Positions 748-37,264 of a stretch of 64,000 bases of DNA are shown one piece after another; within the stretch, counting starts at the first letter, position 1; the number at the start of each line of letters is the position of its first letter. Below the pieces are notes generated by a model, which did not search any database, was not told where the DNA came from, and worked only from the letters and a program-made list of their open reading frames with translations. The position numbers were made by a program, and so were the translations under genes. Source of the DNA: a virus; the IMG/VR virus record IMGVR_UViG_3300029343_000516. One strand, written 5' to 3'.

Positions 748-1320
748 TTATTCTCCGCTCTTAATGATTTCTTTTAATGTTCTTGGTGTATAGTTTATAT
801 AACTTTTCATACATCCGACATTCCACATATTACATGGCTTATCATATAAAGCTGTCATCTGATATTTTACCTGCTGCATCATATTATCTTCGAAACCTGT
901 ATGTACATGACCGTAGAGATGATAGCTTCCGTAATAATGATTCTTAAAGCATGGAATTGGATAATGACATAAAACTATAATCTTACCATCACCAATATCG
1001 AGTTCCTTGTAATCAGCGATCTCACAAAATCTACTCTGTAATTCTCTGTTCTTTAACAACTTACCATCATGATTACCCTTGATTAGATGTATATTCCCAT
1101 TCAGATTGTTAAAAATTTCAATAGTTTTTGTTGCGTTGTACCACGAAATATCTCCAAGCAGGTATACATCATCATCAATTTCTACTGTATTATTCCAATT
1201 TTTAATAATCGTCTCGTCATTCTCTTCAATTGATTTAAAAGGTCTATTGTCAAATGCCATGCAGTTTTTATGTCCAAAATGTAAATCTGATATAAAATAA
1301 TTCATATAATTATTCTCCAA
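748..1320 (-). CDS. calcineurin-like metallophosphoesterase (possible RNA 3'-phosphatase / cyclic phosphodiesterase)
   Basis: Metallophosphatase motifs DLHFGH, GDISWY, GNHD and GHVH in the canonical order. Overlaps the RNA ligase gene by 11 nt, so the two are co-translated. Confidence 0.8.
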   Translation of the reverse strand: MENNYMNYFISDLHFGHKNCMAFDNRPFKSIEENDETIIKNWNNTVEIDDDVYLLGDISWYNATKTIEIFNNLNGNIHLIKGNHDGKLLKNRELQSRFCEIADYKELDIGDGKIIVLCHYPIPCFKNHYYGSYHLYGHVHTGFEDNMMQQVKYQMTALYDKPCNMWNVGCMKSYINYTPRTLKEIIKSGE

Positions 1321-2236
1321 AAATAATCTTCTTAGCCCAATTCATAGTTGTAGAACCACACATCTTGCCAAAGAATTCACCAGCTTCAACAACTAATTCA
1401 TTCTCTTCTTTTACACAATCCTCAAAAATTCTCTTAGGTAAATTCTGTGCAACAATTCTCATGTCTTGTGGCTCAATCTTTTGAGGTAAAATACCTTCAT
1501 CAATCATCTTGTATAATTCTTTTTGGACACGATTTTTTGTAACAATCTGCTCCACAATCTCAGAAGCCTTTGCTTTAGCTGCTAATTTCTGTGGATCTTC
1601 AACTTTCTGTCTATGGTTGTCCTTCTTGATTTCGCTAAACTGTGAATTTACAATCTTTAATACAAATGGAGTCCTTGAGTTTGGATTGTTAAGTTCTGTT
1701 TGATTCTTAACAACAATTCCTTCAGGAATATCTACCGCAATATCTGACTTGTGCATAAACGACATACAATGTTCCCATGAGATAAATTCTCCATCATAAA
1801 ATGTCTGTACATATCTCAAATTTAATTCGTCAGCAAGTCTCTTAACCTCTGATTGAGGTAAATAACATTCATTCTCTTTGTCATATACATCGTAAAAATA
1901 TGATTTACCATAGGCTTCTGGAATATATTTAATAGTATGCTTTGTAAGCCACTCCATGAAAAATACATAATTTGGATATTTTGAAAATGGTTCAACTGCC
2001 AATGTCTGCACCCAATTCCAAAATCCATTTAATGTATTGTTATAATCAAGAGTCTGCCTTCTCGAAAATGCAACTAACTTATTTGTTTCTTTATCATAAG
2101 CAATAGCTGAATTGCTTCCATCTACCTTTTCCTGAATTACAATATGATCTCCTACATGGAAACCACCTGTATTCGCTACTGTTAATTCCGTATCTTCTTT
2201 GATACGTGATATATCCATAAATTTCTTTTGTTCCAT
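1310..2236 (-). CDS. ATP-dependent RNA ligase-like nucleotidyltransferase (Rnl family)
   Basis: Motif I EKVDGSN (lysine adenylylation site, KxDGxN) near the N-terminus. Size 308 aa. Adjacent to a phosphoesterase, as in RNA repair cassettes. RNA rather than DNA ligase is an inference from the motif variant. Confidence 0.6.
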   Translation of the reverse strand: MEQKKFMDISRIKEDTELTVANTGGFHVGDHIVIQEKVDGSNSAIAYDKETNKLVAFSRRQTLDYNNTLNGFWNWVQTLAVEPFSKYPNYVFFMEWLTKHTIKYIPEAYGKSYFYDVYDKENECYLPQSEVKRLADELNLRYVQTFYDGEFISWEHCMSFMHKSDIAVDIPEGIVVKNQTELNNPNSRTPFVLKIVNSQFSEIKKDNHRQKVEDPQKLAAKAKASEIVEQIVTKNRVQKELYKMIDEGILPQKIEPQDMRIVAQNLPKRIFEDCVKEENELVVEAGEFFGKMCGSTTMNWAKKIIFGE

Positions 2237-10654: not shown

Positions 10655-10670
10655 TTATATATTCTCCTTT

Positions 10671-11297
10671 CTACATTCGATTCATCACATCATAGAACCG
10701 AATTAAATACTCATATACATTTCTAGGAACTAATTCTTTTACCTTTTCAAATTCACCCTTTTCACATAAATCTCTAACCAAACTTGAAGAAGTATGATTT
10801 TTTGGTATCTGAATTTCTGTGAAGTGATCTTTATATTCCATAAGATTTGCTTCTCTTAAAGCAGTCTCAAGATTCTGACCTTCTCTCACACATGCTACAA
10901 AATTATATTCCTCAACAAACGGTTTCCAATTATACCAAGTTGTAAGTGGTTCAATATTATCCATTCCTAAACAAATATAGTATTCGTTGAAGATATAATC
11001 TTTTTCATTTATATCTCTTATCTGAGTAATAGTATTGTATGTCCTCTGTGGAAAGAAGCTGGTTGTTTCAACTTCGGATGCCCACATATTATTTTCCTCA
11101 CAATTTGGCATTGAATTAATCAGCGATACTCGACAATATCCAGGTATCAAAGTCTTTTTCTTCGCAACATATGTATCATGTGCAGGAATAAACAATATAG
11201 CATCAGCATTAACCGCTTTTTTAGCAGTCAATGCCATATCAACATGGGCGTTGGTAATTGGATTAAAACTTCCTGGTATAAGTAAAATTTTATTCAT
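10671..11297 (-). CDS. nadD: nicotinate/nicotinamide mononucleotide adenylyltransferase
   Basis: N-terminal LLIPGSFNPITNAH is the (H/T)xGH nucleotidyltransferase motif of NadD/NMNAT. 208 aa, flanked by nadE and pncB. Confidence 0.8.
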   Translation of the reverse strand: MNKILLIPGSFNPITNAHVDMALTAKKAVNADAILFIPAHDTYVAKKKTLIPGYCRVSLINSMPNCEENNMWASEVETTSFFPQRTYNTITQIRDINEKDYIFNEYYICLGMDNIEPLTTWYNWKPFVEEYNFVACVREGQNLETALREANLMEYKDHFTEIQIPKNHTSSSLVRDLCEKGEFEKVKELVPRNVYEYLIRFYDVMNRM

Positions 11298-12498
11298 GAT
11301 TCATTCTCCAATTAATACATCTCTTTAGATAATCAACATAATCAGGGTTTTTACACATACCTTTACCTTCTACATCAGACACTTTTGCAACATCCATACC
11401 GTTACATTTAGTGGTTTTCATTACAATATTTAAAACAGGAACATCTGTGTCATTACTCAAATAAGTACCAATTCCAAATGCAACGTTTACTCTATCATGG
11501 AAGTGTCTGAATAACTTATCAGCTCTTTCAAAATCAAGACTGTCACTAAACAGAAGTGTCTTTGTCTTAGGATTGATACCAAGTGACTCATAATGATTAA
11601 TCATCTTTTCACCCCATTCAATCGGATCTCCACTATCATGTCTTACACCACTGAATAATGTTGCATATGTCAACTGAAAATCTTTCAAGAAACAATCAGT
11701 TGTAATTGTGTCTGTGAGAGCAATACCATTTAACACACCATACTCTCTAACCCATGCGTCTAAGGCATACCAGTTTGAATATGCTGGATTGTGCTTGTGA
11801 TTTCCCTGACCAGAACACATAATCCATTCATGAGCCATAGTTCCAACAGGCGTGAGATTATATTTCTTTGCGAGATATACATTAGATGTACCAACAAATT
11901 TAGATGGACTGTGTAATGTATCATTCAAATGTGAAAACTTCTCAACAGCTAACTCCTGTGCTTCAGCAGAAAGTCTTCTTCTAAGACCAAATTCAGAAAA
12001 TGTACCAGCGTACCAATGACCGCTTCTGAGATTTTCATACTTTTCATCTAATCTCTTTTTGAAACTATTAAGCAATTCCTCATAGTTATATGCCATTCTA
12101 AAATATACTTCGTTCACAATCGCAAGTGTAGGAATCTCATACATAGATGTATTAAGCCATGTACCAAATGTTTCGATAGAAAGACCGCAATCTGAATCTG
12201 TTGTAATCTCAAAATCCTCATATCTGGGCTGCCATAATCTTAAAAAATCAACATACGAGCCCTTTATCCATTTGATATTGTCAAGGTAAGTAAGTTCATC
12301 TTCTGTGAATCTCAAACCACAATATAATTTAATCTGTCTGCGAATCTCTTCTACCATTTCTTGTGTAAAGTGAACATCCTTATTACGACATTTAAAACTC
12401 CAAGTGGTTTTATAATCACTAAACTGATGATAAATAGCCTGTCCCATACTTAATTTGTACATATCGGTTTCTAATAAACTTGTAATAATCTGCTCCAT
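11290..12498 (-). CDS. pncB: nicotinate phosphoribosyltransferase
   Basis: LLETDMYKLSMGQAIYHQF matches E. coli PncB LLDTDAYKLHMQQAVFHHY, and the roughly 400 aa length fits. I placed the start at the internal Met (MEQIITSLL), which has SD GAAGGAAA. The longer listed ORF start would read through the upstream gene. Confidence 0.8.
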   Translation of the reverse strand: MEQIITSLLETDMYKLSMGQAIYHQFSDYKTTWSFKCRNKDVHFTQEMVEEIRRQIKLYCGLRFTEDELTYLDNIKWIKGSYVDFLRLWQPRYEDFEITTDSDCGLSIETFGTWLNTSMYEIPTLAIVNEVYFRMAYNYEELLNSFKKRLDEKYENLRSGHWYAGTFSEFGLRRRLSAEAQELAVEKFSHLNDTLHSPSKFVGTSNVYLAKKYNLTPVGTMAHEWIMCSGQGNHKHNPAYSNWYALDAWVREYGVLNGIALTDTITTDCFLKDFQLTYATLFSGVRHDSGDPIEWGEKMINHYESLGINPKTKTLLFSDSLDFERADKLFRHFHDRVNVAFGIGTYLSNDTDVPVLNIVMKTTKCNGMDVAKVSDVEGKGMCKNPDYVDYLKRCINWRMNHE

Positions 12499-12499
12499 A

Positions 12500-13054
12500 T
12501 TAATTTCCTTCTTTCTTGATTTGATTAAATATTGTTCTAATATCATATTCTCTGTTTTCGTACTCATAAAACAGATTAATATACTTATCAATAAAAGCCA
12601 TGTCATTTGGATGCATTGCAATTGGTTTACTTTTCTTAGATTCCCACCATTTTAATTCCTTCTCAAAATTAAATGATTTACCATGATATGCTCTACCTGC
12701 TCCAAGATAATCACAAAGCATTTCTTTTTTATACTTCATTGGCATTTCAATAGGATTTCCACCATTATCAAAATTGTCCTGCCAATATTCGTAATGGTGC
12801 TTGTTTCTTCCTTTATGGTGCATCCAAGCTGCTGACCAACCATTCTCTTTCTTGCAAGCATCTATTGGACTTGAAGTACCTTGATAATACTTAACACTCT
12901 CCCAAAATTCCGTTGGAGAAAATTTAGATAAATCATGTACTAACCCTTGAAATGGAATTCCCACTTTACAGCAATAGTAGAACACCCAATGTTTATGCGT
13001 ACAGACTTTCTTAAAATGTCTGAAAGTATTAATGATATAATTCTTATACTTCAT
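12500..13054 (-). CDS. HD-domain metal-dependent phosphohydrolase-like protein
   Basis: H...HD pattern (THKHW ... GLVHDLSKF ... HHKGRNKHH). Start placed at MKYKNY, which has SD GGAGAG. Embedded between pncB and a radical SAM gene. Confidence 0.5.
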   Translation of the reverse strand: MKYKNYIINTFRHFKKVCTHKHWVFYYCCKVGIPFQGLVHDLSKFSPTEFWESVKYYQGTSSPIDACKKENGWSAAWMHHKGRNKHHYEYWQDNFDNGGNPIEMPMKYKKEMLCDYLGAGRAYHGKSFNFEKELKWWESKKSKPIAMHPNDMAFIDKYINLFYEYENREYDIRTIFNQIKKEGN

Positions 13055-13688
13055 TATTCTCTCCAATCTTTCTATACTCCGTATATACTTTGTTTTCACA
13101 GTAATACAAGTTATAATCACACTGTTCAATGTACCACCATAACTTCTGATGTCCTTCTTTAAGATATTCTCTACAATAATCTGTTTCCTGATAGTGATTA
13201 TCTACCATCTGTCTGAAACTCAACTCATCAATAATACCTGAGTTATGACAATATACTGCTATTCTGTTAATTAAATCCTCTGTGAAATTTTCCGTGACCA
13301 CAAATACAACTCTGACAATTTCGTTTTTTAATCGCTTGATGGATTTTAATTGTTTAAAATCATGTAAATGGTATACAACTCTGTCAAAATATGCATATGG
13401 TGCATCTTTTACATTTGGCATACTTGTATGTAGCTCTATCTGAACTCTATGTAAAGTTATATCGAAGAATTTCCTATACCACTCTACATTATTTTCTAAA
13501 TTCCATAATGGATCTCCACCACCAGATATTGATACCCAATTACACTGATTTTTCTTAATCTCCTCTTCCAAAGAGTTCAATCCATCAATCGTACTCTTTG
13601 GAATCTGAAGGTTATTATTCTTTACAATGCAATATGGACATGAATAGTGGCATCCAAAATTGGTTATCACACTCATGTACTTATCCAT
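13044..13688 (-). CDS. radical SAM protein (small, NrdG/PflA/QueE-like activase fold)
   Basis: N-terminal CxxxCxxC cluster (FGCHYSCPYC) and ISGGGDPL (the GGEPL-like SAM motif). 214 aa. Confidence 0.7.
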   Translation of the reverse strand: MDKYMSVITNFGCHYSCPYCIVKNNNLQIPKSTIDGLNSLEEEIKKNQCNWVSISGGGDPLWNLENNVEWYRKFFDITLHRVQIELHTSMPNVKDAPYAYFDRVVYHLHDFKQLKSIKRLKNEIVRVVFVVTENFTEDLINRIAVYCHNSGIIDELSFRQMVDNHYQETDYCREYLKEGHQKLWWYIEQCDYNLYYCENKVYTEYRKIGENNEV

Positions 13689-13691
13689 ATT

Positions 13692-14201
13692 CTACTCTCC
13701 AATCACTTCAATCTGACAACTTTTCATAACTTCCATAGCCGCTTTATGTTTATCAGGTGTGACTCCTGCACAGCAACTTGCATCTACTGTGACATTAATA
13801 AATGGATAATCAGCTTTAATAATTAAAGCATTTGATACTACACAAATTTCGCTACAAAGACCAATAAGTTCTATATCATTGTTAAATCCAAAGTCAGTCC
13901 AATGTGTCCAACCAAAAGATTCCTTATTGATATATGCACAATTTGGAACTTCTAATCCGTCTGCAATCTGCCATCCATGAGTATTGTAAATACAATGTTC
14001 AACTGGTAACTTGATACCTTCTGGTGTACTTAAATAGTTTTCATAATGTGTATCTCTTGTGAAAATAATTCTATCTCCACGATTATAATATTCTTCAATT
14101 TTCTTCTTGACATTTGGAACAATTGCCTGTGCTTCCTTTGTACCGAGTGAGCCATCAATAAAATCATTCTGCATATCAATTACAATTAATGTTTTGCTCA
14201 T
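13692..14201 (-). CDS. pncA: nicotinamidase (isochorismatase-family cysteine hydrolase)
   Basis: LIVIDMQNDF signature (catalytic Asp) plus the conserved Lys and Cys (LCSEICV) of the isochorismatase/PncA family. 169 aa. Confidence 0.75.
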   Translation of the reverse strand: MSKTLIVIDMQNDFIDGSLGTKEAQAIVPNVKKKIEEYYNRGDRIIFTRDTHYENYLSTPEGIKLPVEHCIYNTHGWQIADGLEVPNCAYINKESFGWTHWTDFGFNNDIELIGLCSEICVVSNALIIKADYPFINVTVDASCCAGVTPDKHKAAMEVMKSCQIEVIGE

Positions 14202-17551: not shown

Positions 17552-17995
17552 TCACCTCTTACATACCAAAATCTCAACATCTGTATCCGCAAAAATGTTT
17601 TTAATCTGTTCAGAGACATCATTCCAGTTCAATCTATCTAAGCCACAACCAATTACAGGCATTGCAATCTTCTTGATATTATTCTCCAAACAAATCTGTT
17701 TCATCTTTTCAAGTGCAAGTCTCATTGTAATTGTTGTTGGTTTGTGAAAATATCTCTCTTTTGTAATAAGATTTAATACCCTATCTTCTAATAGACAATC
17801 ACCACCAATCCTCTTATGAGTATACCGGTCAAAATAATATGGATATTTTGTCAGCAACCTTCTCTTCATATCAAACCTTTTATTGAACTCAACTACAATT
17901 CCTTTACCCATTCCAAAATCTGCACTGATACAATGTGCTAAATAATAATCTTCTGGTACTGTAAACAAGTCTTTATTTTCTTCTCTATATTTCAC
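17552..17995 (-). CDS. macro domain protein, Poa1p/TARG1(OARD1)-type ADP-ribose-1''-phosphate phosphatase / ADP-ribosyl hydrolase
   Basis: [19 protein letters not shown] and [21 protein letters not shown] align closely with human OARD1/TARG1 ([40 protein letters not shown]). 147 aa. Confidence 0.8.
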   Translation of the reverse strand: [147 protein letters not shown]

Positions 17996-18216
17996 TATTT
18001 CACCTCGCTTACCACTTTTATCTTACATTCGATTTCTACAACTTCTAGCTGCCTATCAGCGTTATAACGTCTTGACTTGAATCTTCTAACCGCATTCTCA
18101 GCAGTTTTTCTTGTTTCCCAATATTTGTGTCGTGGGTTTGTAAGATTACTTAGTAATTTTCCTGTTAATTTATCCATTACACCATATAATGTAAATTCAT
18201 TTTCCATCTCTTTCAC
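17995..18216 (-). CDS. hypothetical protein (73 aa)
   Basis: ORF in the array. Confidence 0.4.
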   Translation of the reverse strand: MKEMENEFTLYGVMDKLTGKLLSNLTNPRHKYWETRKTAENAVRRFKSRRYNADRQLEVVEIECKIKVVSEVK

Positions 18217-18221
18217 CTCAC

Positions 18222-18422
18222 TTATTCTCTATATGGTTCAGGACATTTCTGCCACGCAACCACATCTACGGTGCTACCACTTGGTAAAACATCCCATATC
18301 CAATTTCCCTTTGGATATTCATATCTATCAGTTTGTCTTACCTGTCTCCCAAAAGATGTTTCTATTGTTACCAAATACCTTCCTTTTTTCTGTGGTGGAT
18401 TTTTAGTTCCCCATTTTGCCAT
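18222..18422 (-). CDS. hypothetical protein (66 aa)
   Basis: ORF in the array. Confidence 0.4.
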   Translation of the reverse strand: MAKWGTKNPPQKKGRYLVTIETSFGRQVRQTDRYEYPKGNWIWDVLPSGSTVDVVAWQKCPEPYRE

Positions 18423-18432
18423 TTATTTCACC

Positions 18433-19173
18433 TCACATCCATTTATCAATCTCGCTAAACACATTGCCTAGCGAATCAACAATCGTCAGATCCGTATCTT
18501 CATTCATTAACACTTGAATTTTTTCCCTATTGATAATAACCAAATGCCTACCACTGAAATACGAAATATAATTCGCTGCTGGATAAACTTTTAATGAAGT
18601 GCCACCAATAATCAACATTTCAGCATCTCGAATGGCTCTGATTGCCCTATTTACCGCATCATTAGGAAGATTTTCTCCATATAAAGTTACGTCAGGTCTA
18701 ATCAGACCACCACATTCACACTTTGGGATAGCTTCTTTAGTGTTAAACAAGAAATCTGAATGATATTCCATTTTACATTTACTACAATAATTCCTCTGAG
18801 TAGTTCCATGAATTTCAAATACATTCTTACTGCCAGCTTTTTGATGAAGCCCATCAATGTTCTGTGTAACAATAGCCTTCAACTTACCTATTTCTTCCAT
18901 CTTAGCAAGTACCTTATGAGTAATATTTGGCTCAATATTTCTTGTATCCATCTTCTGACGATAGAACTCATAGAATACCTTTGGATTGTTATATAAGCAT
19001 TCTCGACTCAAAAGATACTCTGGCTCGTATCTATCAAACTGAACGTCATGCTGATTATATAACCCATCCTTAGAACGAAAGTCTGGAATACCACTTTCAG
19101 TAGATACACCTGCTCCACCAAAGAATACAATATTATTTGATTCTTCTATATATTCTCTTAATTTTTCGTACAT
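18433..19173 (-). CDS. cobB: NAD-dependent protein deacylase, Sir2/CobB sirtuin family
   Basis: GAGVSTESGIPDFR, TQNIDGLH, HG, a Zn-binding Cys4 (CSKC ... CECGG) and GTSLKVYPAA are all canonical sirtuin motifs. 246 aa. Confidence 0.85.
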   Translation of the reverse strand: MYEKLREYIEESNNIVFFGGAGVSTESGIPDFRSKDGLYNQHDVQFDRYEPEYLLSRECLYNNPKVFYEFYRQKMDTRNIEPNITHKVLAKMEEIGKLKAIVTQNIDGLHQKAGSKNVFEIHGTTQRNYCSKCKMEYHSDFLFNTKEAIPKCECGGLIRPDVTLYGENLPNDAVNRAIRAIRDAEMLIIGGTSLKVYPAANYISYFSGRHLVIINREKIQVLMNEDTDLTIVDSLGNVFSEIDKWM

Positions 19174-19445: not shown

Positions 19446-20834
19446 TTAATACTCTATCCAACCATCTGTAATACCAGTCATCCAATAAATAAGATCTTCT
19501 CTATCATTTTTTAATCTTCCATCTATTACACGAGTTAAGATTTCATTGAGCCAGTATCCAACTTCTTTTCCACTTTTAATGAGCATTGTATCCATTACAT
19601 CTTTTCCATTAACTGCTAAATCCTTTAGAGAAAAACATTCATCGTCCTGTAAAACTTCTTCCAAAATATATCCGATATTGTCAATCTTCTGTAATCTTGT
19701 TTCCTGATTAATGTCTGCTTGTGCTTTAATATCAGCTCTACGAACATTTAATAACCTTCTGAACTGTTCTTCTCCAATTTTATTAAGCCATCTCTTGACA
19801 TATTTCTTCCCCATCTCAAAAGTTGTATCATGATAATAAACAAGCTGCACTACTTTTTCTCTTGTATCATTATCAAAACGAAGTCTTTTCATAATTGTAT
19901 CAGTCATATCAGCACTGACTCTTCCATGACCTTTAAAATGTCTAATACCATCTTCTCCATCCTGATAACAATGTGGTTTTCCTATGTCATGAAAGAACAC
20001 CGCTAATGATGTAATTAAATCTATTGAATTTAAGTCGGGTTCACAATCACATTCATAAGCTTGTACTGCATGTACTGTATGATTCCATACATCATAAATG
20101 TGATATGGATTATTCTGTTGAAAGCCAAGCATATCTTTAATTTCAGGAATGAACAACGAGAATACTTCACGGAATAATCCTATCTGTATATAAAACTCGC
20201 TTGATAATGCAATCTTACAGAACTCACTGTTGATTCTCTCAATAGATATATTCTCTAAATTCTTATACATTTTATGAATATTAAAACTCACATCAGAATC
20301 AACCACAAATCCCAGTTGTGAAGCAAACCGAATAGCACGTAAAATTCTTAAAGCATCTTCCGAAAATCTATCCTCTGCTCTACCAACACATCTGATTTTA
20401 TAATGCTCAATATCTTCCATACCATTAAACGGATTTACAAGACCAACTTCATCATTGTATGCCATCGCATTGATTGTAAAATCTCTACGCTTCAAATCTT
20501 CTTTAAGACTTCGTGTAAATGTTACGCTATCAGGTCTACGACTATCTGAGTAATTACCGTCAATTCTGTAAGTGGTGCATTCATATCCTTCACCGTCAAT
20601 TACAATGGTAATAGTTCCATGTTGTAAACCAGTTTCAATAATTCTCTTGTCCTTGAATACTTCCATCATTTCATCTGGTGTGGCAGAAGTTGTAATGTCG
20701 TAATCGTGAATTGGTCTGCCAAGAATACTATCTCTCACTGCACCACCACATAAAAATGCCTCATATCCATTATTCTGTAAAGTATGAATAATTTCATTTG
20801 CACCAGATGGAATTTCAATTTTCAATTTCTTCAT
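19446..20834 (-). CDS. cca: tRNA nucleotidyltransferase (CCA-adding enzyme) with HD domain
   Basis: Class II nucleotidyltransferase head CGGAVRDSILGRPIHDYDI (GGxVRD...DxD), HD motif FFHDIGKP. 462 aa. Confidence 0.8.
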   Translation of the reverse strand: MKKLKIEIPSGANEIIHTLQNNGYEAFLCGGAVRDSILGRPIHDYDITTSATPDEMMEVFKDKRIIETGLQHGTITIVIDGEGYECTTYRIDGNYSDSRRPDSVTFTRSLKEDLKRRDFTINAMAYNDEVGLVNPFNGMEDIEHYKIRCVGRAEDRFSEDALRILRAIRFASQLGFVVDSDVSFNIHKMYKNLENISIERINSEFCKIALSSEFYIQIGLFREVFSLFIPEIKDMLGFQQNNPYHIYDVWNHTVHAVQAYECDCEPDLNSIDLITSLAVFFHDIGKPHCYQDGEDGIRHFKGHGRVSADMTDTIMKRLRFDNDTREKVVQLVYYHDTTFEMGKKYVKRWLNKIGEEQFRRLLNVRRADIKAQADINQETRLQKIDNIGYILEEVLQDDECFSLKDLAVNGKDVMDTMLIKSGKEVGYWLNEILTRVIDGRLKNDREDLIYWMTGITDGWIEY

Positions 20835-20871
20835 TCAAATTCACCTCAATTTTTGGTATATTTATAAAATA

Positions 20872-21426
20872 TCACTTATTCGTTATCATATCCAAAAACA
20901 ACAAATCATCTTTCTTCAATGTGATATCATAACCTTTCCATTCTTCCATTAGCCCTCTTATATCAAATTTATGCGGAACAATAATTGCATAGCCGTGAGG
21001 AGTCTTATGTACCTCTATCTCTAATAATGGAATTTCCGAATACATAGCTATCTCATGGACAAAATCATTCATCAATAACTCATCATCCACATCAAAATCA
21101 AATAACCACTTGCCATCATCTCTGTTCTGCACTTGCAGTGCAACTGAAGCCAATGTGTGATTGAGACGTGTCATACTCAGTTTATCTCTCAGTAGTCGGA
21201 TAATAAATTCTTCTCTGATTTTATCTTCATTCCTTGAATTGACCGACCTGTATAATCTTGTCTGTTCACCAGGAACTCCTTTGGCTGCAAAACTCTTAAA
21301 TTCTTCAATTATTTTGTCTTCATTCTCTTTATATTCAAGGATTGTTTCAATTCGCCCCTTGAAGTTTGGAACATCTTTATTATCCTTGTTACGAGAACGA
21401 ATTAAATATACATATAAATTTGACAT
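20872..21426 (-). CDS. hypothetical protein (about 184 aa) immediately downstream of tpt1
   Basis: ORF starting MSNLYVYLIRSRN. Its SD GGAGAATAA coincides with the Tpt1 stop. One HxTx-like motif (HKTP), otherwise unassigned. Confidence 0.45.
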   Translation of the reverse strand: MSNLYVYLIRSRNKDNKDVPNFKGRIETILEYKENEDKIIEEFKSFAAKGVPGEQTRLYRSVNSRNEDKIREEFIIRLLRDKLSMTRLNHTLASVALQVQNRDDGKWLFDFDVDDELLMNDFVHEIAMYSEIPLLEIEVHKTPHGYAIIVPHKFDIRGLMEEWKGYDITLKKDDLLFLDMITNK

Positions 21427-21431: not shown

Positions 21432-21974
21432 TTATTCTCCTTCTAAATAACAGATTGGTACTTCTTTTGTAAGCCATACACCATTTTGAGATAAAAAGAA
21501 TTTATATCCGTCATTATACATATCTTTTGCTCGAACCTTATAAATAAACGGTTCTCCATGTCTACTGCCAACATTTGTTGCTGTTTCAATATCTTTTGAT
21601 AGATGAACATATAAACGGCTCTTAGAGATTAATCCTTGTTTGTTGATTGAAGAACAATATTTGACACCTGTTCCATGATATAAAATATCTGGTGGCATAC
21701 ACTCTTTTAATTCTACATCAACTTTTATAGAATGACCTTGATTTGCTCTTATAAGCGTCTTTTCTCGATTAAATGAATATCTCTGTTTAGAATCTTCTTC
21801 TACAATTTTCTCAAGCATTTTCATTGTAATCGTCTGAGTTTTATTGATTCCTTTTAATAGATCTGACACGTTAGCCCAACCATGTTTGTCTAATGTGATA
21901 CCGATAACATCAGGTCTGTGTCTAAGAATTAATGCTATGTATTTGCTTAAATTATTTTGCTCTTTATTCGTCAT
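21432..21974 (-). CDS. kptA: RNA 2'-phosphotransferase Tpt1/KptA (NAD+-dependent)
   Basis: LSKYIALILRHRPDVIGITLDKHGWANVSDLL, IRANQGHS, LYHGT, YVHLS and NGVWLT align along the full length with E. coli KptA. Start placed at the internal ATG (MTNKEQ), which has a GGAGA SD. The listed longer ORF begins at TTG. Confidence 0.85.
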   Translation of the reverse strand: MTNKEQNNLSKYIALILRHRPDVIGITLDKHGWANVSDLLKGINKTQTITMKMLEKIVEEDSKQRYSFNREKTLIRANQGHSIKVDVELKECMPPDILYHGTGVKYCSSINKQGLISKSRLYVHLSKDIETATNVGSRHGEPFIYKVRAKDMYNDGYKFFLSQNGVWLTKEVPICYLEGE

Positions 21975-21978
21975 AATG

Positions 21979-22215
21979 TTATCTCCATTCTCCAATATAC
22001 TCAGAACATTCTTTTTTGAATTTTTCCAATATATGTATTAAGCTATCTATTTCATAAGAATCCTTAAATGTTATTTCAATTATTTCAGGCTTAGATATAT
22101 CAATATTGTCAGTAGTGTAGGGCAATGGTTTCATAAAGCAATCAAATCTGACGTTCAACCCTTTATGTGTCAATCTTATTTGATTGACATTTTCTTTATT
22201 TCCAACAACCTTCAA
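21979..22215 (-). CDS. hypothetical protein (78 aa), TTG start with strong SD
   Basis: ORF with SD GGAGGTGA 9 nt before TTG. First gene after palindrome copy C. Confidence 0.4.
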   Translation of the reverse strand: MKVVGNKENVNQIRLTHKGLNVRFDCFMKPLPYTTDNIDISKPEIIEITFKDSYEIDSLIHILEKFKKECSEYIGEWR

Positions 22216-22740: not shown

Positions 22741-24798
22741 TTAAAACTTAATCTTCATTACACGCTCTGTTGCGCCCTTAACCTTAACAACTAAATCTGC
22801 TCTCTTTGTCATAGAGAATCCAATTCCTGAAAGCTGATCATCAGTATCTTCTACATGGCACTTAGCACCTAAAGCCTCAAATACTCTCTTGTGCTTTTCA
22901 AGGTCACTCTTTAAGAACTCATTGTAATAGCCATTAGGATCTTCGCTATTTACACAATCCTTCAGGAAAAAGAATAAATGTCTATGACCAATTCCATCCT
23001 GCTCATCAAAATAATTTGGACTATAACTAATTACTGATACAGGAACAAACTGATTAGTGCTTACACCCCAAATCTCACGACTTGAGATAGATGAACTTCC
23101 AGATAACTTTTCCTTAATTGAGAAGTTGCCATTCTTGTCAAGTGTTACCTCTGCCACCTGAACTTTCTCACCAGTTCTCATAGGATTGCTATAATCAAAT
23201 GAATAAATCTCTCCATTGAACTCAACTTCTGCTCTAAATCCATGTCTTACTGCACCTGAATACTGATGTACAAAGAACTTATAAACACCTGGTTTCATTC
23301 TTGACAGGTCTTCCCAAGTAATATTCTCTACTGCAACCTTTCTATCTGGATGAATAATATCAACGTCTAACTGACCACCCATTCTTGAAACACTTGGCTT
23401 TCTACAATTACTAAAGAAAATTTCATTCTCATCTGGCTCAATACAATGTGCATCAAGGTCGTAATTATCATGACCATCTTCGTTCCACTGAATAGAAAAT
23501 CTGAGTACACCGTCAACATTACCGCCAGCAGCTTTTACATTCTGTTTCATATCAGAATCAGTAATGTTTCCTGAATAAGCCCAAGACAATCCATTATTCC
23601 ACTTGAACATTGTCTTAGCGTCTGGATTAACAGGTGCAACCATAGAAACAAAATTCTTCTCATGCTTATTCTCTACAAAAGCTTCAATTTCTTTTGCGGT
23701 TGGAAGTACCTTATCAATGAAATCCTGTGCTGAAATCTCTTCAACCTTAGAAAACTTCTTAGGACTTACAGCAACATCCTTTTCCATCTGACCAAAAATA
23801 TCATCTGCACCAACCATTCTTCTTGCAGCACTCTTATTTGAGAACAGTACATTATTTACAGTAATATCATTCAGATTAGCAAATCTTCTCTGTAATGAAT
23901 CCATATATCCAAGCTCTGTAATGGTCTTCTTTGCATCCTCAAGCATTTTCTTTGTAAAAATAGCCTTTGGTCTTTTATAGTTGCTCGGTGCTGTAATCTG
24001 CTCATACTTCTTAACTGCTGTGTCAAGATCCATATCCTCACTTACATTAATAAGAAGTGTTCCAATAGAATGATTTCTAATTCTACCGATAGCCATACCT
24101 GCTGTTACCGACTTCTCCCAAGCATATAAATCCTTTTCAGTATCAGAAGTCAGCTTATCATATTCTTTCTTATACTTCTTGAACTCTGTGAGTACACCTT
24201 TCCACTCTTCGCCCTTGTAAAGTGTATTTGAATTGATAAGTTCAAGAATTGTATCGAGTGCATCCATAGTAATTTCATCAAGAGAACGCTTAAATACATT
24301 TCTTGTGTCTCTGAACTGTCCCTTAACTTCCTCGTTTGAACGGCTACTTCTATTTACGAACTTGCTTGGAAGTTCTAAGAAAAAGTGATCCCACTGATGA
24401 GACTTTCCATTGATTTCCTCAAAATTAAAATCTGTACCAATCTTAGGGAACTTAGTTGTATAAATATCTGTAACTGTATGAGCTTTTACGAAAGCATCAA
24501 GTGCATCACATACTGGCTGATATGTTGTATCACCAAGATTCAGTTCCCAAATCGTATGAATCTGGTTATCCTTGATAGTTACAGCAGAACCAATATTCTT
24601 AATAAACTGTCTACAACAACTACAATCATGTTCTCTACGCTCTCTGAAAATCTCATTTGTACCAGCAGGGAAGCTATCAAGATATGTATTCCATAATTCA
24701 TCCTTATCTACATTTACCTCAAATAAATGTGTTGCCTCTTTCTGCATTTCATCGAAGTGCTTCTGTAATGCCTTCTTAAATTTCATAAATCCATCCAT
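22741..24798 (-). CDS. large hypothetical protein (685 aa)
   Basis: Longest ORF in the window. N-terminal HDCSCC cluster. No recognisable catalytic motif. Confidence 0.55.
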   Translation of the reverse strand: MDGFMKFKKALQKHFDEMQKEATHLFEVNVDKDELWNTYLDSFPAGTNEIFRERREHDCSCCRQFIKNIGSAVTIKDNQIHTIWELNLGDTTYQPVCDALDAFVKAHTVTDIYTTKFPKIGTDFNFEEINGKSHQWDHFFLELPSKFVNRSSRSNEEVKGQFRDTRNVFKRSLDEITMDALDTILELINSNTLYKGEEWKGVLTEFKKYKKEYDKLTSDTEKDLYAWEKSVTAGMAIGRIRNHSIGTLLINVSEDMDLDTAVKKYEQITAPSNYKRPKAIFTKKMLEDAKKTITELGYMDSLQRRFANLNDITVNNVLFSNKSAARRMVGADDIFGQMEKDVAVSPKKFSKVEEISAQDFIDKVLPTAKEIEAFVENKHEKNFVSMVAPVNPDAKTMFKWNNGLSWAYSGNITDSDMKQNVKAAGGNVDGVLRFSIQWNEDGHDNYDLDAHCIEPDENEIFFSNCRKPSVSRMGGQLDVDIIHPDRKVAVENITWEDLSRMKPGVYKFFVHQYSGAVRHGFRAEVEFNGEIYSFDYSNPMRTGEKVQVAEVTLDKNGNFSIKEKLSGSSSISSREIWGVSTNQFVPVSVISYSPNYFDEQDGIGHRHLFFFLKDCVNSEDPNGYYNEFLKSDLEKHKRVFEALGAKCHVEDTDDQLSGIGFSMTKRADLVVKVKGATERVMKIKF

Positions 24799-25035: not shown

Positions 25036-26619
25036 CTACTCAATAATCTTAAATGATACATCTGTTCTTCTATTCATTGCACGATGTTCCTCTGTATCAT
25101 TATCTATTACAGGATTGCTTGAACCGTTACCAACAGTTACGATTCTATCTGCTGAAATACCATTCATAATGAAGTAATTCTTAACAGCTTCCGCTCTCTG
25201 GGCTGATAACTTCTGATTGTACTCGTCCTGCGGATCTGAATTTGGATTAGGATCTGTATTACCAGCAATCTCAATAATTGCTCCATCGAGTACATTTGCA
25301 ATATCAATAAATTTATTAAGCTCCTCGGATGCGGCGGCTGAATCTGTAAACTGGGCTGTATTCTTATTAAATGTTACCGAAGCAGATCCACTTAATAATG
25401 CCTCCGTATCCTGTACTTCCTGCTTATTATCATCTGTTACCTTTACTGTGTCTGTGTTAGATACATCTGTAGCATTAAACTTGTCTGCAATGGCATTAAT
25501 ATATGTATCATCAAAAATTGTATCTACTAAATCAGCATTTACAGTCTCACCAATTGATGTCCAAACATTGCACATATCTGAATAAATAGTCTTTGCTGTG
25601 CCATTTAATAAATCAGAATTGTCTTTCCAAGTTGTGAGTTTTGCAGTAGCTGCACTTCCTGCAATATCTTCATCAGATGCAGTATTGAACATTGGCATTA
25701 CTTCTCTGATTGCTGTAAACTCATTGTCGTACATATCGGATGCTTCAAGAGAACCCTGAACAAATTTCTCTACTATCTCTGGATATGCCTCTGCAAAATT
25801 CTTATCAAATAAAATTCCATCCATTACAAGATTTGTTGAGCTTGCTGTACTAAATAATACATGTGCATCTGTCATATTCTGTGCCTGTGTTAAATAAGGC
25901 TCCCATGTAGCAGCTACATCAACTTGTCCTGCAAAAAATGCTTTTGCTGTATCATCTGCTGTTGAGAATAATACAAGATTATCAATAATATCAGATTTCT
26001 CATCGTCTGATAAATCAGAATTATTAACAAACCAAATAACTAATGTCTGTGCCTCTGAAAACTCAGGGACACCAATTTTTGCACCAACTAAATCTTTTAC
26101 TGAATTAATTGATGATTTGGCAATAATACCATCACCACCATTTGAGTAGTTTGTAATATATGGCATAATTACATCTTCACCAGCTTCTGTAAACTTTTGT
26201 GATAAAAATGCTGTTCTATTGATTGTATAGCCTGCCGCATTTAAATCACCTTTAATAAGGGCGTTGCTTGACTGTGTAGCATCATTAATAACATTGATAT
26301 TTACATTGATACCGAGTTTTCCATAAATAGAATCTGGCTGTGTTGTAAGTCCACCATTAGCGTCAATAATAGATTTCCAGCCAATCCACTCATCTAATGA
26401 AAGATTAATAGTTCCGTCACTATTAGCTTTCTTTTTATTAGAACTAGAAGATGTTGTGCCAGTTACTTTGTTCCCTGCATTACTTATCGAAGTGTTACTC
26501 TTGGTTTTAATTAACCCTGTCTTTACACCAGCGAAAACACCACCACCAATTAATGCAATAACCAAAACCATAATTAAAATTTTTGAAGCTTTGGTAAGTC
26601 TAAATCTTTTTGTACTCAT
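25036..26619 (-). CDS. ABC transporter substrate-binding protein (NMT1/SsuA-like) fused to a C-terminal OmpA-like peptidoglycan-binding domain
   Basis: N-terminal TM anchor and a periplasmic binding-protein-like middle. C-terminal NQKLSAQRAEAVKNYF...RRTDV is the OmpA/MotB signature. 527 aa. Confidence 0.6.
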   Translation of the reverse strand: MSTKRFRLTKASKILIMVLVIALIGGGVFAGVKTGLIKTKSNTSISNAGNKVTGTTSSSSNKKKANSDGTINLSLDEWIGWKSIIDANGGLTTQPDSIYGKLGINVNINVINDATQSSNALIKGDLNAAGYTINRTAFLSQKFTEAGEDVIMPYITNYSNGGDGIIAKSSINSVKDLVGAKIGVPEFSEAQTLVIWFVNNSDLSDDEKSDIIDNLVLFSTADDTAKAFFAGQVDVAATWEPYLTQAQNMTDAHVLFSTASSTNLVMDGILFDKNFAEAYPEIVEKFVQGSLEASDMYDNEFTAIREVMPMFNTASDEDIAGSAATAKLTTWKDNSDLLNGTAKTIYSDMCNVWTSIGETVNADLVDTIFDDTYINAIADKFNATDVSNTDTVKVTDDNKQEVQDTEALLSGSASVTFNKNTAQFTDSAAASEELNKFIDIANVLDGAIIEIAGNTDPNPNSDPQDEYNQKLSAQRAEAVKNYFIMNGISADRIVTVGNGSSNPVIDNDTEEHRAMNRRTDVSFKIIE

Positions 26620-26634
26620 TCCATTCTCTCCTTA

Positions 26635-27372
26635 TTATTTGTTGTATTTTTTCTTTAAACTGTCTAAATAATCATTACTGCTATTCTTTTTAGCTTCGAC
26701 TTCTGCTTTTGCAAGTTTCGTAGACATCTTGTTATTATGTACTACTTTTGAACCCTCAACAATTGCATCTAAGTCTTTATTCTTATCTCTGACAGAATCA
26801 AGAAGTTTATCAGTTGCAGTTACATTTTTTAACTCGTCCATATCATCATAGACTTCCTGTAACTGTTTCTTCACTTTCATATTCTCCACAACTTCCTTAC
26901 TTTCTCTCTTTAATTTGCGGAGATTCTTTTCACACATTTCCTGTGCTTCTTTTGCAGTGTTAGCTGCGTCTTCATATGCTTTAACTAATTCTGAATATCT
27001 CCTGATATCAGCCATAATCTCTTCTCTCTCATCAGCTTTTAACTGTGCTAACTCTATCTTATTTGCTTTTACAAGAGATTCACATTCAGATTCGACCTTC
27101 TCAAGCTTTGCTTTGAGATTCTTCATATCTTTTTGTGCATTGCTTAATTTACCAGCAGCTACCTTGTAAGCATTATCCGCTTTGTTATAAGCGTCTTGTG
27201 CCTGATCAATTTTTTCACCATAAATAGCCTCCGCACCTTCTGGGGTTGTAGCCATATCTTTGATAAACAGTCTCGTAATTCCCGAAAATAATGTTCTTAC
27301 TTCAGGAAATAAAATAAAAATCAAAATAATAACTGCAACTACCAAAATCACAATAAGTTTTCCAAGATCCAT
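26635..27372 (-). CDS. membrane-anchored coiled-coil protein (PspA/IM30-like, tentative)
   Basis: N-terminal TM helix followed by about 200 aa of Ala/Lys/Glu-rich coiled coil. Confidence 0.4.
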   Translation of the reverse strand: MDLGKLIVILVVAVIILIFILFPEVRTLFSGITRLFIKDMATTPEGAEAIYGEKIDQAQDAYNKADNAYKVAAGKLSNAQKDMKNLKAKLEKVESECESLVKANKIELAQLKADEREEIMADIRRYSELVKAYEDAANTAKEAQEMCEKNLRKLKRESKEVVENMKVKKQLQEVYDDMDELKNVTATDKLLDSVRDKNKDLDAIVEGSKVVHNNKMSTKLAKAEVEAKKNSSNDYLDSLKKKYNK

Positions 27373-27902
27373 TAATTGTCTCCTCCTTCAATAAATTTAA
27401 TTAATCCAGAAATTCTACCAACTTCTGTATTAATACTATTCTCTGAAACTTTCATCTCTGACTGCTGTTCAGAAATTTCTTTTTCCAATCTTGCAATCTC
27501 TTTTTTATGATTCTCAATTTCAGTTTCCTTATCAGCGACATTGGCATTTCCATCATCTAAGATTTTTGCCAATACACTATTTAATACATCCACTCTCTGT
27601 TCGCCATCAAGTGTTACATCAGTAACCGTTAAGCCGAACACTCCAAGAGTTGCTAACACTGAACCTCTCTTTGTCTCTGTAACCATTTCTTTTGGAAGAG
27701 AATTAATCAGTTCTTCAATTTTGAAAATTGATTTTGACCTATCAGATAACTCATTCTGAGCATAAATATCATCAATAAGAGTATCTGTATGTACCTCGTC
27801 AAGTTCAACTGGAACTGTACTATCCTCTACAGAATAATCAGTGCCTACATCATAATTCTCTTCTTCTGGAACTTTCTCTACGAAAAAGTCTCTAAATCCC
27901 AT
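27372..27902 (-). CDS. hypothetical acidic coiled-coil protein (176 aa)
   Basis: ORF whose start overlaps the upstream stop within the ABC operon. Confidence 0.45.
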   Translation of the reverse strand: MGFRDFFVEKVPEEENYDVGTDYSVEDSTVPVELDEVHTDTLIDDIYAQNELSDRSKSIFKIEELINSLPKEMVTETKRGSVLATLGVFGLTVTDVTLDGEQRVDVLNSVLAKILDDGNANVADKETEIENHKKEIARLEKEISEQQSEMKVSENSINTEVGRISGLIKFIEGGDN

Positions 27903-27919
27903 TTTGTTTCCTCCTTAAA

Positions 27920-28531
27920 TTAAAATTCTATAATCACGTCACACATTTTTTGTGCTTCTTCTTTGCTATGTGTAACCATAATTATTGTGTTATTTGTTTC
28001 TTTATGCTGCTTGATAATCAAATCTTGCATTTTTTGTCTAGTTTCAATATCTAATGCAGATAATGGTTCATCCATAAGAATTATTTCTGGATTCATAAAT
28101 AATGTTCTTGCCAAAGCAAGTCTTTGTCTCATACCGCCTGATAGTTGTTTTGGATATTTATTTTCGTTATCTTTCAATCCAACAATAGAAATCATTTCTT
28201 TTGCTCTATCAATATCACACTTATTTATTCTCCCTTTGACTTTCTGTGCTATCAGAATATTATCCAAACACTTTAACCAATCAAATGAAGTATAATTTTG
28301 ATGCATCATGTAAATATTATTTTTACTTGCCTTAGTAACTAATTCTCCATTTACAACTACATTTCCACTTAAAGGCTTAATAAGACCTGCGATTGTTCTT
28401 AACAAAGTTGTTTTCCCACAACCAGATTCACCTAATATCCCATAGATCTTAGGATCAAATTGATAGTTGAAATTCTTCAATAAAGGCTTGTCTCTGCTAT
28501 ACCCTGTATATAACTCATTTAACTTAACCAT
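27920..28531 (-). CDS. ABC transporter ATP-binding protein (NitT/TauT family)
   Basis: Walker A GESGCGKTT, signature LSGGMRQRLALAR, Walker B IILMDEP. Confidence 0.85.
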   Translation of the reverse strand: MVKLNELYTGYSRDKPLLKNFNYQFDPKIYGILGESGCGKTTLLRTIAGLIKPLSGNVVVNGELVTKASKNNIYMMHQNYTSFDWLKCLDNILIAQKVKGRINKCDIDRAKEMISIVGLKDNENKYPKQLSGGMRQRLALARTLFMNPEIILMDEPLSALDIETRQKMQDLIIKQHKETNNTIIMVTHSKEEAQKMCDVIIEF

Positions 28532-29270
28532 TTATATACCTCCATTTAAAAATGTGTTTTACTAACCATTTTGCAGAAAAATCAAATATAACACTTATAA
28601 TCATGATTACGATAATAGCCATAAAAACCAAATCTGTTCTTCCTCTTGAAGAAGATTGTTGAATTATATAACCCAATCCATATTTTGCATTAATTGTTTC
28701 TGCTACTGCTATATATGTAAATCCAATTCCATACATCATGATAAAACTATTTAATACTCCTGGTAGAGATGCTGGTATCTGTATTCTCCAAATAGTTTGT
28801 ATCTTATTCATTCCGATTGTTAATCCTGTATCAATCAAATCACTACTGACTTCCTCTAAACATAAAATAACTGAAGGCATCATGTATACAAAAGTTGCGA
28901 TAAATAAAAATACTATTTTCATCATTTCGTCTATACCAAACCACATAATCAGTAGAGGATAAAAAGCTGTGACAGGAATGTATCTCATAACACTGATAAT
29001 CGGATTTAATATATCTTTTGCTACTTTTGAGTTATAAACTAAAATTGCAATAGGAAATGCAATAAATCCTGATACAAAAGTTGCTATAGTTATTCTCAAA
29101 AACGAATATTTAATAGCCATTATCAACTGTCCAGTTTTCAACATTGCAATTAAATCTTTAAATACTGTCTTTGGATCTGGAACAAATAATTGATTTACAT
29201 GTTGTGAAGCAATACTCCAAATTATAAAAATAGTCATTAGTAATGCTATTCTTTTTAAAATAATTTTCAC
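28524..29270 (-). CDS. ABC transporter permease (binding-protein-dependent inner-membrane component)
   Basis: Six hydrophobic segments. 8-nt overlap with the ATPase gene. Confidence 0.7.
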   Translation of the reverse strand: MKIILKRIALLMTIFIIWSIASQHVNQLFVPDPKTVFKDLIAMLKTGQLIMAIKYSFLRITIATFVSGFIAFPIAILVYNSKVAKDILNPIISVMRYIPVTAFYPLLIMWFGIDEMMKIVFLFIATFVYMMPSVILCLEEVSSDLIDTGLTIGMNKIQTIWRIQIPASLPGVLNSFIMMYGIGFTYIAVAETINAKYGLGYIIQQSSSRGRTDLVFMAIIVIMIISVIFDFSAKWLVKHIFKWRYING

Positions 29271-31555: not shown

Positions 31556-31630
31556 CTAGGCTGGTGGGACTTGAACCCACAAAACCTGCGGTCAAAGCGC
31601 AGTGCGTCTAACCAATTTCGCCACAGCCCA
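31556..31630 (-). tRNA. tRNA-Gln (anticodon UUG), Firmicutes-like
   Basis: Cloverleaf with acceptor UGGGCUG/CAGCCUA (U1-A72, G73), D-loop with GG, anticodon stem CUGCG/CGCAG, loop CUUUGAC and T-arm GUGGG-UUCAAGU-CCCAC. Resembles B. subtilis tRNA-Gln. No encoded CCA. Confidence 0.75.
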
Positions 31631-35648: not shown

Positions 35649-35667
35649 GAGTATTTCCTCCTTATGT

Positions 35668-36228: not shown

Positions 36229-36253
36229 TTCATTACTCCTTTGATTTTGATGT

Positions 36254-37099: not shown

Positions 37100-37171
37100 C
37101 GGGGCTACTGGGATTCGAACCCAGAAATACATGGATCAAAACCATGTGCCTTGCCATTTGGCGATAACCCT
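37100..37171 (-). tRNA. tRNA-Gln (anticodon UUG), E. coli tRNA-Gln-like
   Basis: AGGGUUAUCGCCAAAUGGCAAGGCACAUGGUUUUGAUCCAUGUAUUUCUGGGUUCGAAUCCCAGUAGCCCCG is near-identical in architecture to E. coli tRNA-Gln (AUCGCCAAG...GGCA, loop UUUUGAU, T-arm CUGGG-UUCGAAU-CCCAG). A1·C72 mismatch, G73, no CCA. Confidence 0.75.
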
Positions 37172-37258: not shown

Positions 37259-37264
37259 AATTAT

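Follow-up and report, generated by a model that had tools for sequence, protein, structure and literature searches.

Phage-encoded CCA-adding enzymes have already been described. In jumbo phages, the CCA-adding enzyme is the second commonest RNA-repair nucleotidyltransferase after RlaP (Iyer et al. 2021, PMC7824862), and the translation genes of huge phages also include such enzymes (Al-Shayeb et al. 2020, PMC7162821). Here, we analysed a CCA-adding enzyme gene (hereafter, the CCA gene) in a 64,000-nt stretch of the IMG/VR virus record IMGVR_UViG_3300029343_000516 (hereafter, the window); its annotation is correct and ordinary. The RNA-repair and NAD+-ADP-ribose conflict systems of large phages (Iyer, Aravind and colleagues; PMC7824862, PMC9503650) hold the same repertoire as the surroundings of this gene. 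Two further reports concern damaged RNA and tRNA ends: RlaP extends damaged RNAs by one or two nucleotides at the 3'-OH and is needed to restore the aminoacylation of over-damaged tRNA (PMC12776372), and Cas12a3 cuts off the discriminator and the CCA tail of tRNA, the means of phage resistance being stated as yet unknown (PMC12851939).

The phage tRNA nucleotidyltransferases of PHROG 2244 (mycobacteriophage, Vibrio, Caulobacter and jumbo-phage enzymes) are likewise phage-borne CCA-adding enzymes, and they co-occur with tRNA genes, RNA ligase, KptA/Tpt1, RlaP, Thg1 and PTH2. In total, 529 phage records with a homologue of the CCA protein were found. In contrast to the PHROG 2244 enzymes, however, the CCA protein is at most 46% identical to any GenBank phage protein, and its gene comes from an uncultured human-gut lineage, where it is an accessory gene, present or absent, and mostly linked to RlaP. 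Based on sequence and a structural model, we consider it probable (about 80%) that the gene encodes a functional CCA-adding enzyme for tRNA 3'-end maintenance and repair, carried as an accessory function.

Enzyme identity and the HD domain

The CCA gene is one unbroken open reading frame (ORF) of 462 aa with an ATG start (Table 1). Judged by its sequence and its modelled structure, its product belongs to the class II CCA-adding enzymes, is full-length and has its HD site intact. Pfam recognized a PolyA_pol head (3.4e-36), an HD domain (3.9e-06; 27.6 bits, cutoff 22) and a tRNA_NucTran2_2 tail (4.9e-12), and the PolyA_pol_RNAbd neck and TIGR00277 HDIG (18.6 bits against 27.6) matched below threshold. 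The motifs CGGAVRDSILGRPIHDYDI and FFHDIGKP were both present; motif A comprises GGAVRD (residues 30-35) and D44-Y-D46, motif B comprises R116-R117-D118, and motif D (EDxxR) comprises E159-D160-A-L-R163. An earlier annotation of this DNA (the original prediction) had quoted such motifs for a full-length class II nucleotidyltransferase with an HD domain and had named a search for the head, HD and tail domains as a check. The quoted motifs were found in the ORF and the three domains by the search, and the proposal was borne out by Pfam, the NCBIfam equivalog NF009814 and the fold.

NF009814 ('CCA tRNA nucleotidyltransferase') matched with 318.4 bits (cutoff 290), and the other CCA equivalogs (actinobacterial and E. 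coli type) scored below their cutoffs. In PHROGs, the protein matched phrog_2244 'tRNA nucleotidyltransferase' (2.5e-69). The best sequence matches in the PDB were the CCA-adding enzymes of Planococcus and Geobacillus (E about 1e-65 and 1e-61), to which the catalytic core (residues 12-230) is approximately 55% identical. Motifs A and B are joined by an intact flexible loop, in which YRIDGNYSDSRRPDSV aligns ungapped to FRTESSYSDNRRPDSV of the Planococcus CCA-adding enzyme. Work by Neuenfeldt and colleagues in 2008 reportedly made deletion of this loop a hallmark of CC-adding enzymes. No second PolyA_pol-family gene was found in the window, and thus no pair of a CC-adding and an A-adding enzyme exists there.

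A scan of 1.8 billion cluster representatives returned 46,683 homologues, of which the top 150 were mostly full-length (approximately 440-470 aa) and 40-57% identical, with one exception at 81%. In alignments of 56-57 diverse homologues, G30, G31, R34, D44, D46, R117, D118, E159, D160 and R163 were invariant, as were E199, R200 and E204 of motif E, and the HD residues H245, H252, H282, D283, H303, H335 and D368 were at least 90% conserved. An AlphaFold (AF2) model built on a homologue alignment reached a predicted local distance difference test score (pLDDT) of 95.1 and a predicted template modelling score (pTM) of 0.91. Its top Foldseek matches were full-length class II CCA-adding enzymes (6QXN at 5e-23), and the target-normalised template modelling scores were 0.78 for 1MIV and 0.82 for human mitochondrial 8CBM. 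All of the top 46 matches were class II tRNA nucleotidyltransferases or poly(A) polymerases, with CCA-adding enzymes leading and A-adding enzymes and poly(A) polymerase ranked well lower.

It is very unlikely that the protein instead lacks tRNA specificity and adds tails to RNA 3' ends in general or in the manner of a poly(A) polymerase, marking RNAs of the host or the phage to be degraded or stabilised. The two PcnB models remained far under their curated cutoffs (TIGR01942, 151 bits against 305.65; NF008634, 105.5 bits against 702), whereas the CCA equivalog was passed, and the poly(A) polymerase classification that the original prediction had set against its own did not occur. Moreover, a tRNA_NucTran2_2 tail is present, the core resembles that of solved CCA-adding enzymes at the identity given above, and CCA-adding enzymes lie at least 8 orders of magnitude ahead of poly(A) polymerase in the full-length structural matches. 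What the alternative has on its side is a head domain in common with PcnB (one Pfam family), an E value of 3.5e-44 for TIGR01942 (pcnB), and Foldseek matches to E. coli poly(A) polymerase structures at 1e-13 to 1e-14.

By its sequence features, the CCA gene product is a host-type (Clostridia/Eubacteriales-like), putatively bifunctional enzyme. A chromosomal homologue in an Eubacteriales metagenome-assembled genome (CAZQDT010000031; 49% identity, 442 aa against 462 aa) has an architecture identical to that of the CCA protein (PolyA_pol, RNAbd, HD and NucTran2_2), and its neighbours (PFOR, Ffh, topoisomerase and chemoreceptor genes) are clearly chromosomal. Because this homologue has the same four domains, the HD domain was inherited with a Clostridia-type housekeeping enzyme. 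The idea that the HD domain is a phage innovation was rejected on this ground and on the conservation of the HD residues across the 56-57 homologues. This homologue, one of the chromosomal CCA/HD enzymes of Clostridia and Eubacteriales, stands in a cellular housekeeping context, whereas the CCA gene stands in a phage accessory island.

The Firmicutes class II CCA-adding enzymes (Geobacillus stearothermophilus 1MIV and Planococcus halocryophilus 6IBP/6QXN; NF009814) have the head, neck, body and tail fold in common with the CCA protein, and they have identical motifs A, B, D and E and a likewise intact flexible loop. However, the CCA protein is approximately 60 residues longer than the Bacillus-type enzymes, its body HD motif set is absent from their Pfam architecture, and the Firmicutes genes are chromosomal, whereas the CCA gene is phage-encoded. 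The E. coli multifunctional CCA addition/repair protein (NF008137) is likewise a class II nucleotidyltransferase fused to an HD domain, and its model aligned to residues 109-380, including the HD region (E 9.3e-36). In contrast, the CCA protein reached only 123 bits against the cutoff of 451 for this model, its tail is of the Firmicute tRNA_NucTran2_2 type, and its HD activity is predicted. Yakunin and colleagues are said to have found in 2004 that the HD domain of the E. coli CCA enzyme has phosphatase, 2'-nucleotidase and 2',3'-cyclic phosphodiesterase activities.

The HD ligands are invariant in 81 of 81 phage orthologues, the HD region gave weak matches to Cas3 HD models and phosphodiesterase folds, and a DHH/DHHA1-like gene often lies directly 3' of the CCA gene in relatives. 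These points would suit a reading in which the HD activity was selected, for example for hydrolysis of an immune nucleotide second messenger, with the nucleotidyltransferase part as a passenger. We consider such a reading exceedingly improbable, however, as the nucleotidyltransferase catalytic residues are equally conserved (bar one R34K) and under the same purifying selection, the HD domain comes with the whole architecture from cellular CCA-adding enzymes, and the matches of the HD region to other families are weak and generic.

Distribution and selection in the phage lineage

The exact CCA protein was found on a 373-kb human-gut metagenome scaffold (ENA ERZ28635104) that contains the window. 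The window has the look of a large phage, with genes nearly all on one strand, many small ORFs without assignment and many PHROG matches; one close homologue was deposited as 'Caudoviricetes sp.', and the relatives are IMG/VR viral contigs. Close homologues were seen on contigs of up to 895 kb, and the IMG/VR relatives were mostly 90-210 kb; concatemers, misassemblies, integrated copies or truly larger genomes may account for the longer contigs. No cultured relative was found by a megablast of 6 kb against GenBank phages, and the best tblastn match in this phage collection was 46% identical to the CCA protein. A collection of species-representative genomes gave only two matches, both at most 50% identical, and the nearest outgroup representative (P0243) lies on an uninformative 3-kb contig.

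Eighty phage orthologues with 84-96% protein identity to the window copy were compared. None had an internal stop (0/80), the median ratio of nonsynonymous to synonymous substitution rates (dN/dS) against the window copy was 0.14 (range 0.06-0.25), and the nucleotidyltransferase and HD catalytic residues, including D336, were kept in 81 phage orthologues, the sole change being one R34K. Because no stops occurred, dN/dS was low and the catalytic residues were kept, the CCA gene appears functional where it is present. The good ribosome-binding site in front of its ATG is a further point in favour of function. The host-type architecture and the patchy presence in relatives might suggest a recently captured host gene that is neutral cargo and has no adaptive role in the phage. 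Against this, the phage clade is well set apart from all other homologues (next cluster representatives at most 57%, best genome-collection match 50%), and it has diversified over the identity range given above under purifying selection, with not one pseudogene among its 80 copies, which leaves neutral cargo extremely unlikely.

In IMG/VR, 140 stretches carried the CCA gene, compared with 437 that carried a relative of the DUF8224 gene. The latter encodes a 685-aa protein (phrog_1735, 6.4e-268) and stands with a gene for a 129-aa partner (phrog_2018); it is a highly conserved anchor (the best 80 of the 437 relatives are 89-98% identical) directly upstream of the hypervariable RNA-repair/NAD+ island. 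Two sets of loci were examined, namely 62 loci anchored on the CCA gene and 63 syntenic loci anchored on the DUF8224 gene, each of the latter with 10 kb of downstream sequence. The CCA gene was present in 28 of the 63 DUF8224-anchored loci and not at the locus in the other 35. Specifically, 26 loci had the 184-aa ORF alone, 18 had RlaP and the CCA gene, nine had the 184-aa ORF and the CCA gene (the arrangement of the window, a minority state), nine had neither, and one had the CCA gene alone. RlaP never occurred without the CCA gene in this set (18/18), and it was found in the 10-kb upstream flank of 48 of the 62 CCA-anchored loci. The 184-aa ORF was found in the upstream flank of 13 of the 62, with Tpt1 in 10 of these 13. 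The CCA gene is therefore an optional accessory gene of the lineage, not a core gene, and the region is a variable accessory block, or island, of a large human-gut phage-like element, which confirms the mobile-element accessory block of the original prediction.

tRNA genes and proposed function

ARAGORN and Rfam found only two tRNA genes in the 64-kb window, both tRNA-Gln(UUG) and both on the same side of the CCA gene, at distances of 10.7 and 16.3 kb. The original prediction had placed the CCA gene between these two genes and next to Tpt1. The first placement was wrong, and so was the second, as a 184-aa ORF separates Tpt1 from the CCA gene (Table 1). Its reading that the tRNA genes do not encode CCA was right, with TTA following both. 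In the second tRNA-Gln(UUG), the acceptor stem is topped by an unusual A1-C72 mismatch, where Rfam flags a non-canonical 1-72 pair. An encoded 3' CCA was absent from all 66 tRNAs of the CCA-anchored loci and the window (Gln-UUG, Lys-UUU, Met-CAU, Ile-UAU and one without ARAGORN assignment), the lone scripted 'CCA' call being the terminal bases of the acceptor stem, and from all of a further 92 tRNAs in the DUF8224-anchored loci.

These counts could mean that the enzyme mainly matures the phage's own CCA-less tRNAs (tRNA-Gln and others) and has no damage-repair role, especially as 37 of 80 relatives have tRNA genes in the 10 kb upstream of the CCA gene and tRNA-carrying large phages often have a CCA-adding enzyme (Al-Shayeb 2020, PMC7162821). 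However, tRNA genes were still found within 10 kb in 29 of the 36 relatives scored as lacking the CCA gene at this locus, and CCA was encoded in none of these tRNA genes. Maturation of phage tRNAs thus appears independent of the phage enzyme, and the host enzyme evidently suffices in these relatives, unless a copy lies elsewhere in their genomes. The original prediction had reasoned that a private enzyme is present since the encoded tRNAs lack CCA; the observation stood, but the causal argument was weakened and is not the main explanation, because relatives without the CCA gene keep CCA-less tRNA genes. Moreover, DUF8224 relatives outnumber the CCA gene in IMG/VR (437 against 140), a host with the closest cellular homologues of this architecture must own a CCA-adding enzyme, and the tight linkage to RlaP, an extender of damaged RNA 3' ends, points to repair. 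We regard pure maturation as possible but, on balance, unlikely.

Codon bias was rejected as a reason for carrying tRNA-Gln(UUG), as CAG outnumbered CAA by 207 to 95 among the glutamine codons of 40 window genes. In the lineage, tRNA-Gln(UUG) was nearly always present, together with Lys(UUU), Met(CAU) or Ile(UAU). Gln-UUG and Lys-UUU tRNAs are classic targets of anticodon nucleases, and the Gln and Lys tRNAs of the lineage may be replacement tRNAs.

The role that we favour is the maintenance and repair of tRNA 3' ends. In this role, the Pol-beta head would use its nucleotide-selecting EDxxR pocket and intact flexible loop for template-independent addition of C, C and A to tRNAs whose 3' CCA is missing or incomplete. 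By analogy with the E. coli multifunctional enzyme, the HD domain would remove blocking 2',3'-cyclic, 2'- or 3'-phosphates, after which the nucleotidyltransferase domain would add back whichever of C, C or A had been lost. With NAD+ from the nearby salvage genes, Tpt1 could remove 2'-phosphates. During infection, the 3' ends of host and phage tRNAs would be kept intact, the host enzyme would be supplemented for the CCA-less phage tRNAs, and tails could be rebuilt after trimming or cleavage by nucleases, toxins or defences of the host. The enzyme would thus work beside the RNA-repair and NAD+ salvage genes of the element. For the CCA protein, we infer the substrates, the HD activity and a counter-defence role alike.

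Gene company and counter-defence

A counter-defence role, raised as a possibility in the original prediction, fits the gene company as far as it can be read from sequence, with RNA ligase, phosphoesterase, Tpt1 and NAD+ salvage genes in the window (Table 1) and RlaP, Thg1 and PTH2 in relatives. The RNA ligase and the phosphoesterase directly 3' of it look like a heal-and-seal RNA repair pair by their family matches, and the 215-aa ORF adjoining them gave no family match.

Table 1. Positions of the CCA gene, its parts and other features within the 64-kb window
Feature	Position	Strand	Description
CCA-adding enzyme gene	19446..20834	-	462 aa; class II tRNA nucleotidyltransferase with HD domain; ORF, Pfam, NCBIfam, PHROG, AF2/Foldseek
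Shine-Dalgarno-like GAGGTG	20842..20847	-	7 nt 5' of the CCA gene ATG; read from sequence
Pol-beta-type nucleotidyltransferase head	20391..20759	-	aa 26-148; motif A GGAVRD...DYD, motif B RRDFTINA; PolyA_pol
HD phosphohydrolase domain	19731..20102	-	aa 245-368; metal-ligand residues H252, H282-D283, H303, H335-D336, D368
tRNA-Gln(UUG)	31556..31630	-	CCA not encoded; ARAGORN, Rfam RF00005 56.9 bits
Second tRNA-Gln(UUG)	37100..37171	-	CCA not encoded; ARAGORN, Rfam 56.6 bits
Tpt1/KptA RNA 2'-phosphotransferase, NAD+-dependent	21432..21995	-	PF01885 1e-46; NF002014 245 bits, cutoff 239
184-aa ORF, phrog_8839	20872..21426	-	between Tpt1 and the CCA gene; context only
RNA ligase, Rnl2-like	1310..2236	-	KxDG motif; PF09414 5.4e-22; phrog_548 1.4e-47
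Calcineurin-like phosphoesterase	748..1320	-	candidate end-healing enzyme; PF00149 1.1e-06; phrog_547 1.5e-44
215-aa ORF	94-741
NAD+ salvage run	9917-14201	-	Preiss-Handler set
Isochorismatase/PncA-like	13692-14201	-	NAD+ salvage set
NAPRTase	11290-12621	-	NAD+ salvage set
NadD-like CTP_transf	10671-11297	-	NAD+ salvage set
NadE	9917-10654	-	NAD+ salvage set
Sir2 and macro domain genes	17552-19173	-	few genes apart
DUF8224 gene and 129-aa partner	22741-24798	-	conserved anchor
ABC transporter-like genes	25036-29270	-	unusual for phage
Region near second tRNA-Gln	34200-39694	-	most annotations transferred from a relative
GmrSD_N-like protein	34200-35648		482 aa
PemK-family toxin	37746-38108
Tyrosine integrase	38666-39694

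A complete Preiss-Handler set leading from nicotinamide to NAD+ lies in one run downstream of the CCA gene, with a radical-SAM-like 214-aa gene and DUF5662 interleaved. In one relative (L009), Nampt, a phosphoribosyl pyrophosphate-type phosphoribosyltransferase and NadE replace the set of the window. Together, they look like a module with which the phage replenishes NAD+ and of which variants can be swapped, and this module may differ from the published NARP1/NARP2 pathways. Also downstream of the CCA gene are a CobB-type Sir2 (NF001752, 310 bits, cutoff 221), a DarG-like macro domain (PADLOC DarG, 1.9e-15) and a Dcm methylase; the Sir2 and macro domain could be a writer/eraser pair for ADP-ribosylation or could have an anti-DarT or anti-NADase function. 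Run on this block, PADLOC gave only the DarG-like macro match and weak generic HD, Sir2 and MotB matches.

The genes swapped into this island in relatives include Thg1, RlaP, PARG, a Nampt-based NAD+ module and PTH2. In 37 of the 62 CCA-anchored relatives (e.g. L005-L007 and L012), the gene 3' of the CCA gene encodes 290 aa and, judged by eye from its DHH...GGGH motifs, resembles a DHH/DHHA1 phosphoesterase. Thg1 and a NUMOD homing endonuclease lie upstream in some. The DHH-like gene, Thg1 and the NUMOD homing endonuclease are not present in the window, and tblastn of the 64 kb found no p320, Thg1, p290 or PARG homologue. On the minus strand, genes are tightly packed, and no terminator-like site was seen from approximately 25 kb to 14.3 kb; a scan for promoters and terminators gave no excess over shuffled expectation.

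The RlaP-CCA cassette of the lineage, in which RlaP (PF10127) stands upstream of the CCA gene either directly or across one ORF, is not found in the window, where the 184-aa ORF takes this position. The idea that it is a functional analogue of RlaP, the two being mutually exclusive upstream of the CCA gene, was rejected, as the ORF occurs without the CCA gene in 26 of the 63 loci and as its homologue in Streptococcus phage Javan74 lies between a replicative helicase and a resolvase. The family is widespread in the gut-phage lineage, Lactococcus 949-group phages and Streptococcus Javan prophages. Its invariant motifs (LYRSVNSRN, WLFDFD and KTPHGY.I.VPH.FD) resemble a DxD/His palm-type site by eye of the sequence, and no Pfam or PDB match was obtained for it.

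Two other regions were observed. The first, unusual for a phage, encodes a BPD_transp_1 ABC permease, an ABC ATPase and a PspA/IM30-like protein, as well as a 527-aa protein in which an NMT1-type substrate-binding region is combined with an OmpA/MotB peptidoglycan-binding domain at the C-terminus. The second, near the second tRNA-Gln gene, carries a tyrosine integrase, a divergent helix-turn-helix pair, a PemK-family toxin and a GmrSD_N-like protein, most of these annotations being transferred from a near-identical relative (L008). These genes point to a lifestyle that is temperate or plasmid-like, or else to an integrated island.

Several points weigh against a repair enzyme of the kind that we favour. 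CCA-adding, A-adding and CC-adding enzymes and poly(A) polymerases have common pocket motifs, and the specificity assigned here is read from model scores, loop integrity and fold ranking. A plain dosage role, in which more CCA-adding activity is supplied for phage tRNAs, is inseparable from repair by sequence alone, and no host defence attacking tRNA 3' ends was identified from this analysis. Within the element, the RNA ligase lies 17 kb from the CCA gene, tblastn detected no RlaP in the 64-kb window, and no polynucleotide kinase, which a T4 Pnkp/Rnl-type heal-and-seal system would include, was found among approximately 45 window ORFs scanned, which covered the small ORFs in part, in an element that extends past the window. 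In addition, the 184-aa gene is not demonstrably RNA-related, and its Javan74 homologue lies in the replication module.

A more specific proposal is that the CCA/HD enzyme, with RlaP in most relatives and Tpt1 here, forms a mobile counter-defence cassette against immune nucleases such as Cas12a3, which remove the discriminator together with the CCA tail. The HD domain, possibly with Tpt1, would clear blocking phosphates, RlaP would restore the one or two lost nucleotides, and the CCA enzyme would then restore the tail. We offer this cassette tentatively and think it rather unlikely. If true, it would answer the call in the Cas12a3 paper (PMC12851939) for a 'yet unknown means of resistance' to the cleavage of tRNA tails.

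Once annotated, the CCA-adding enzymes of phages usually receive no further attention, and immune systems that cleave tRNA 3' tails have been described only recently. The CCA gene resembles a counter-defence gene in that it is optional, lies in a hypervariable island, is linked to RlaP and has NAD+-replenishing and RNA-repair genes as neighbours. The lineage-level pattern of presence and absence is a useful by-product of this analysis, and the near-isogenic gut phages with and without the CCA gene form a natural set that would make the counter-defence question directly testable.

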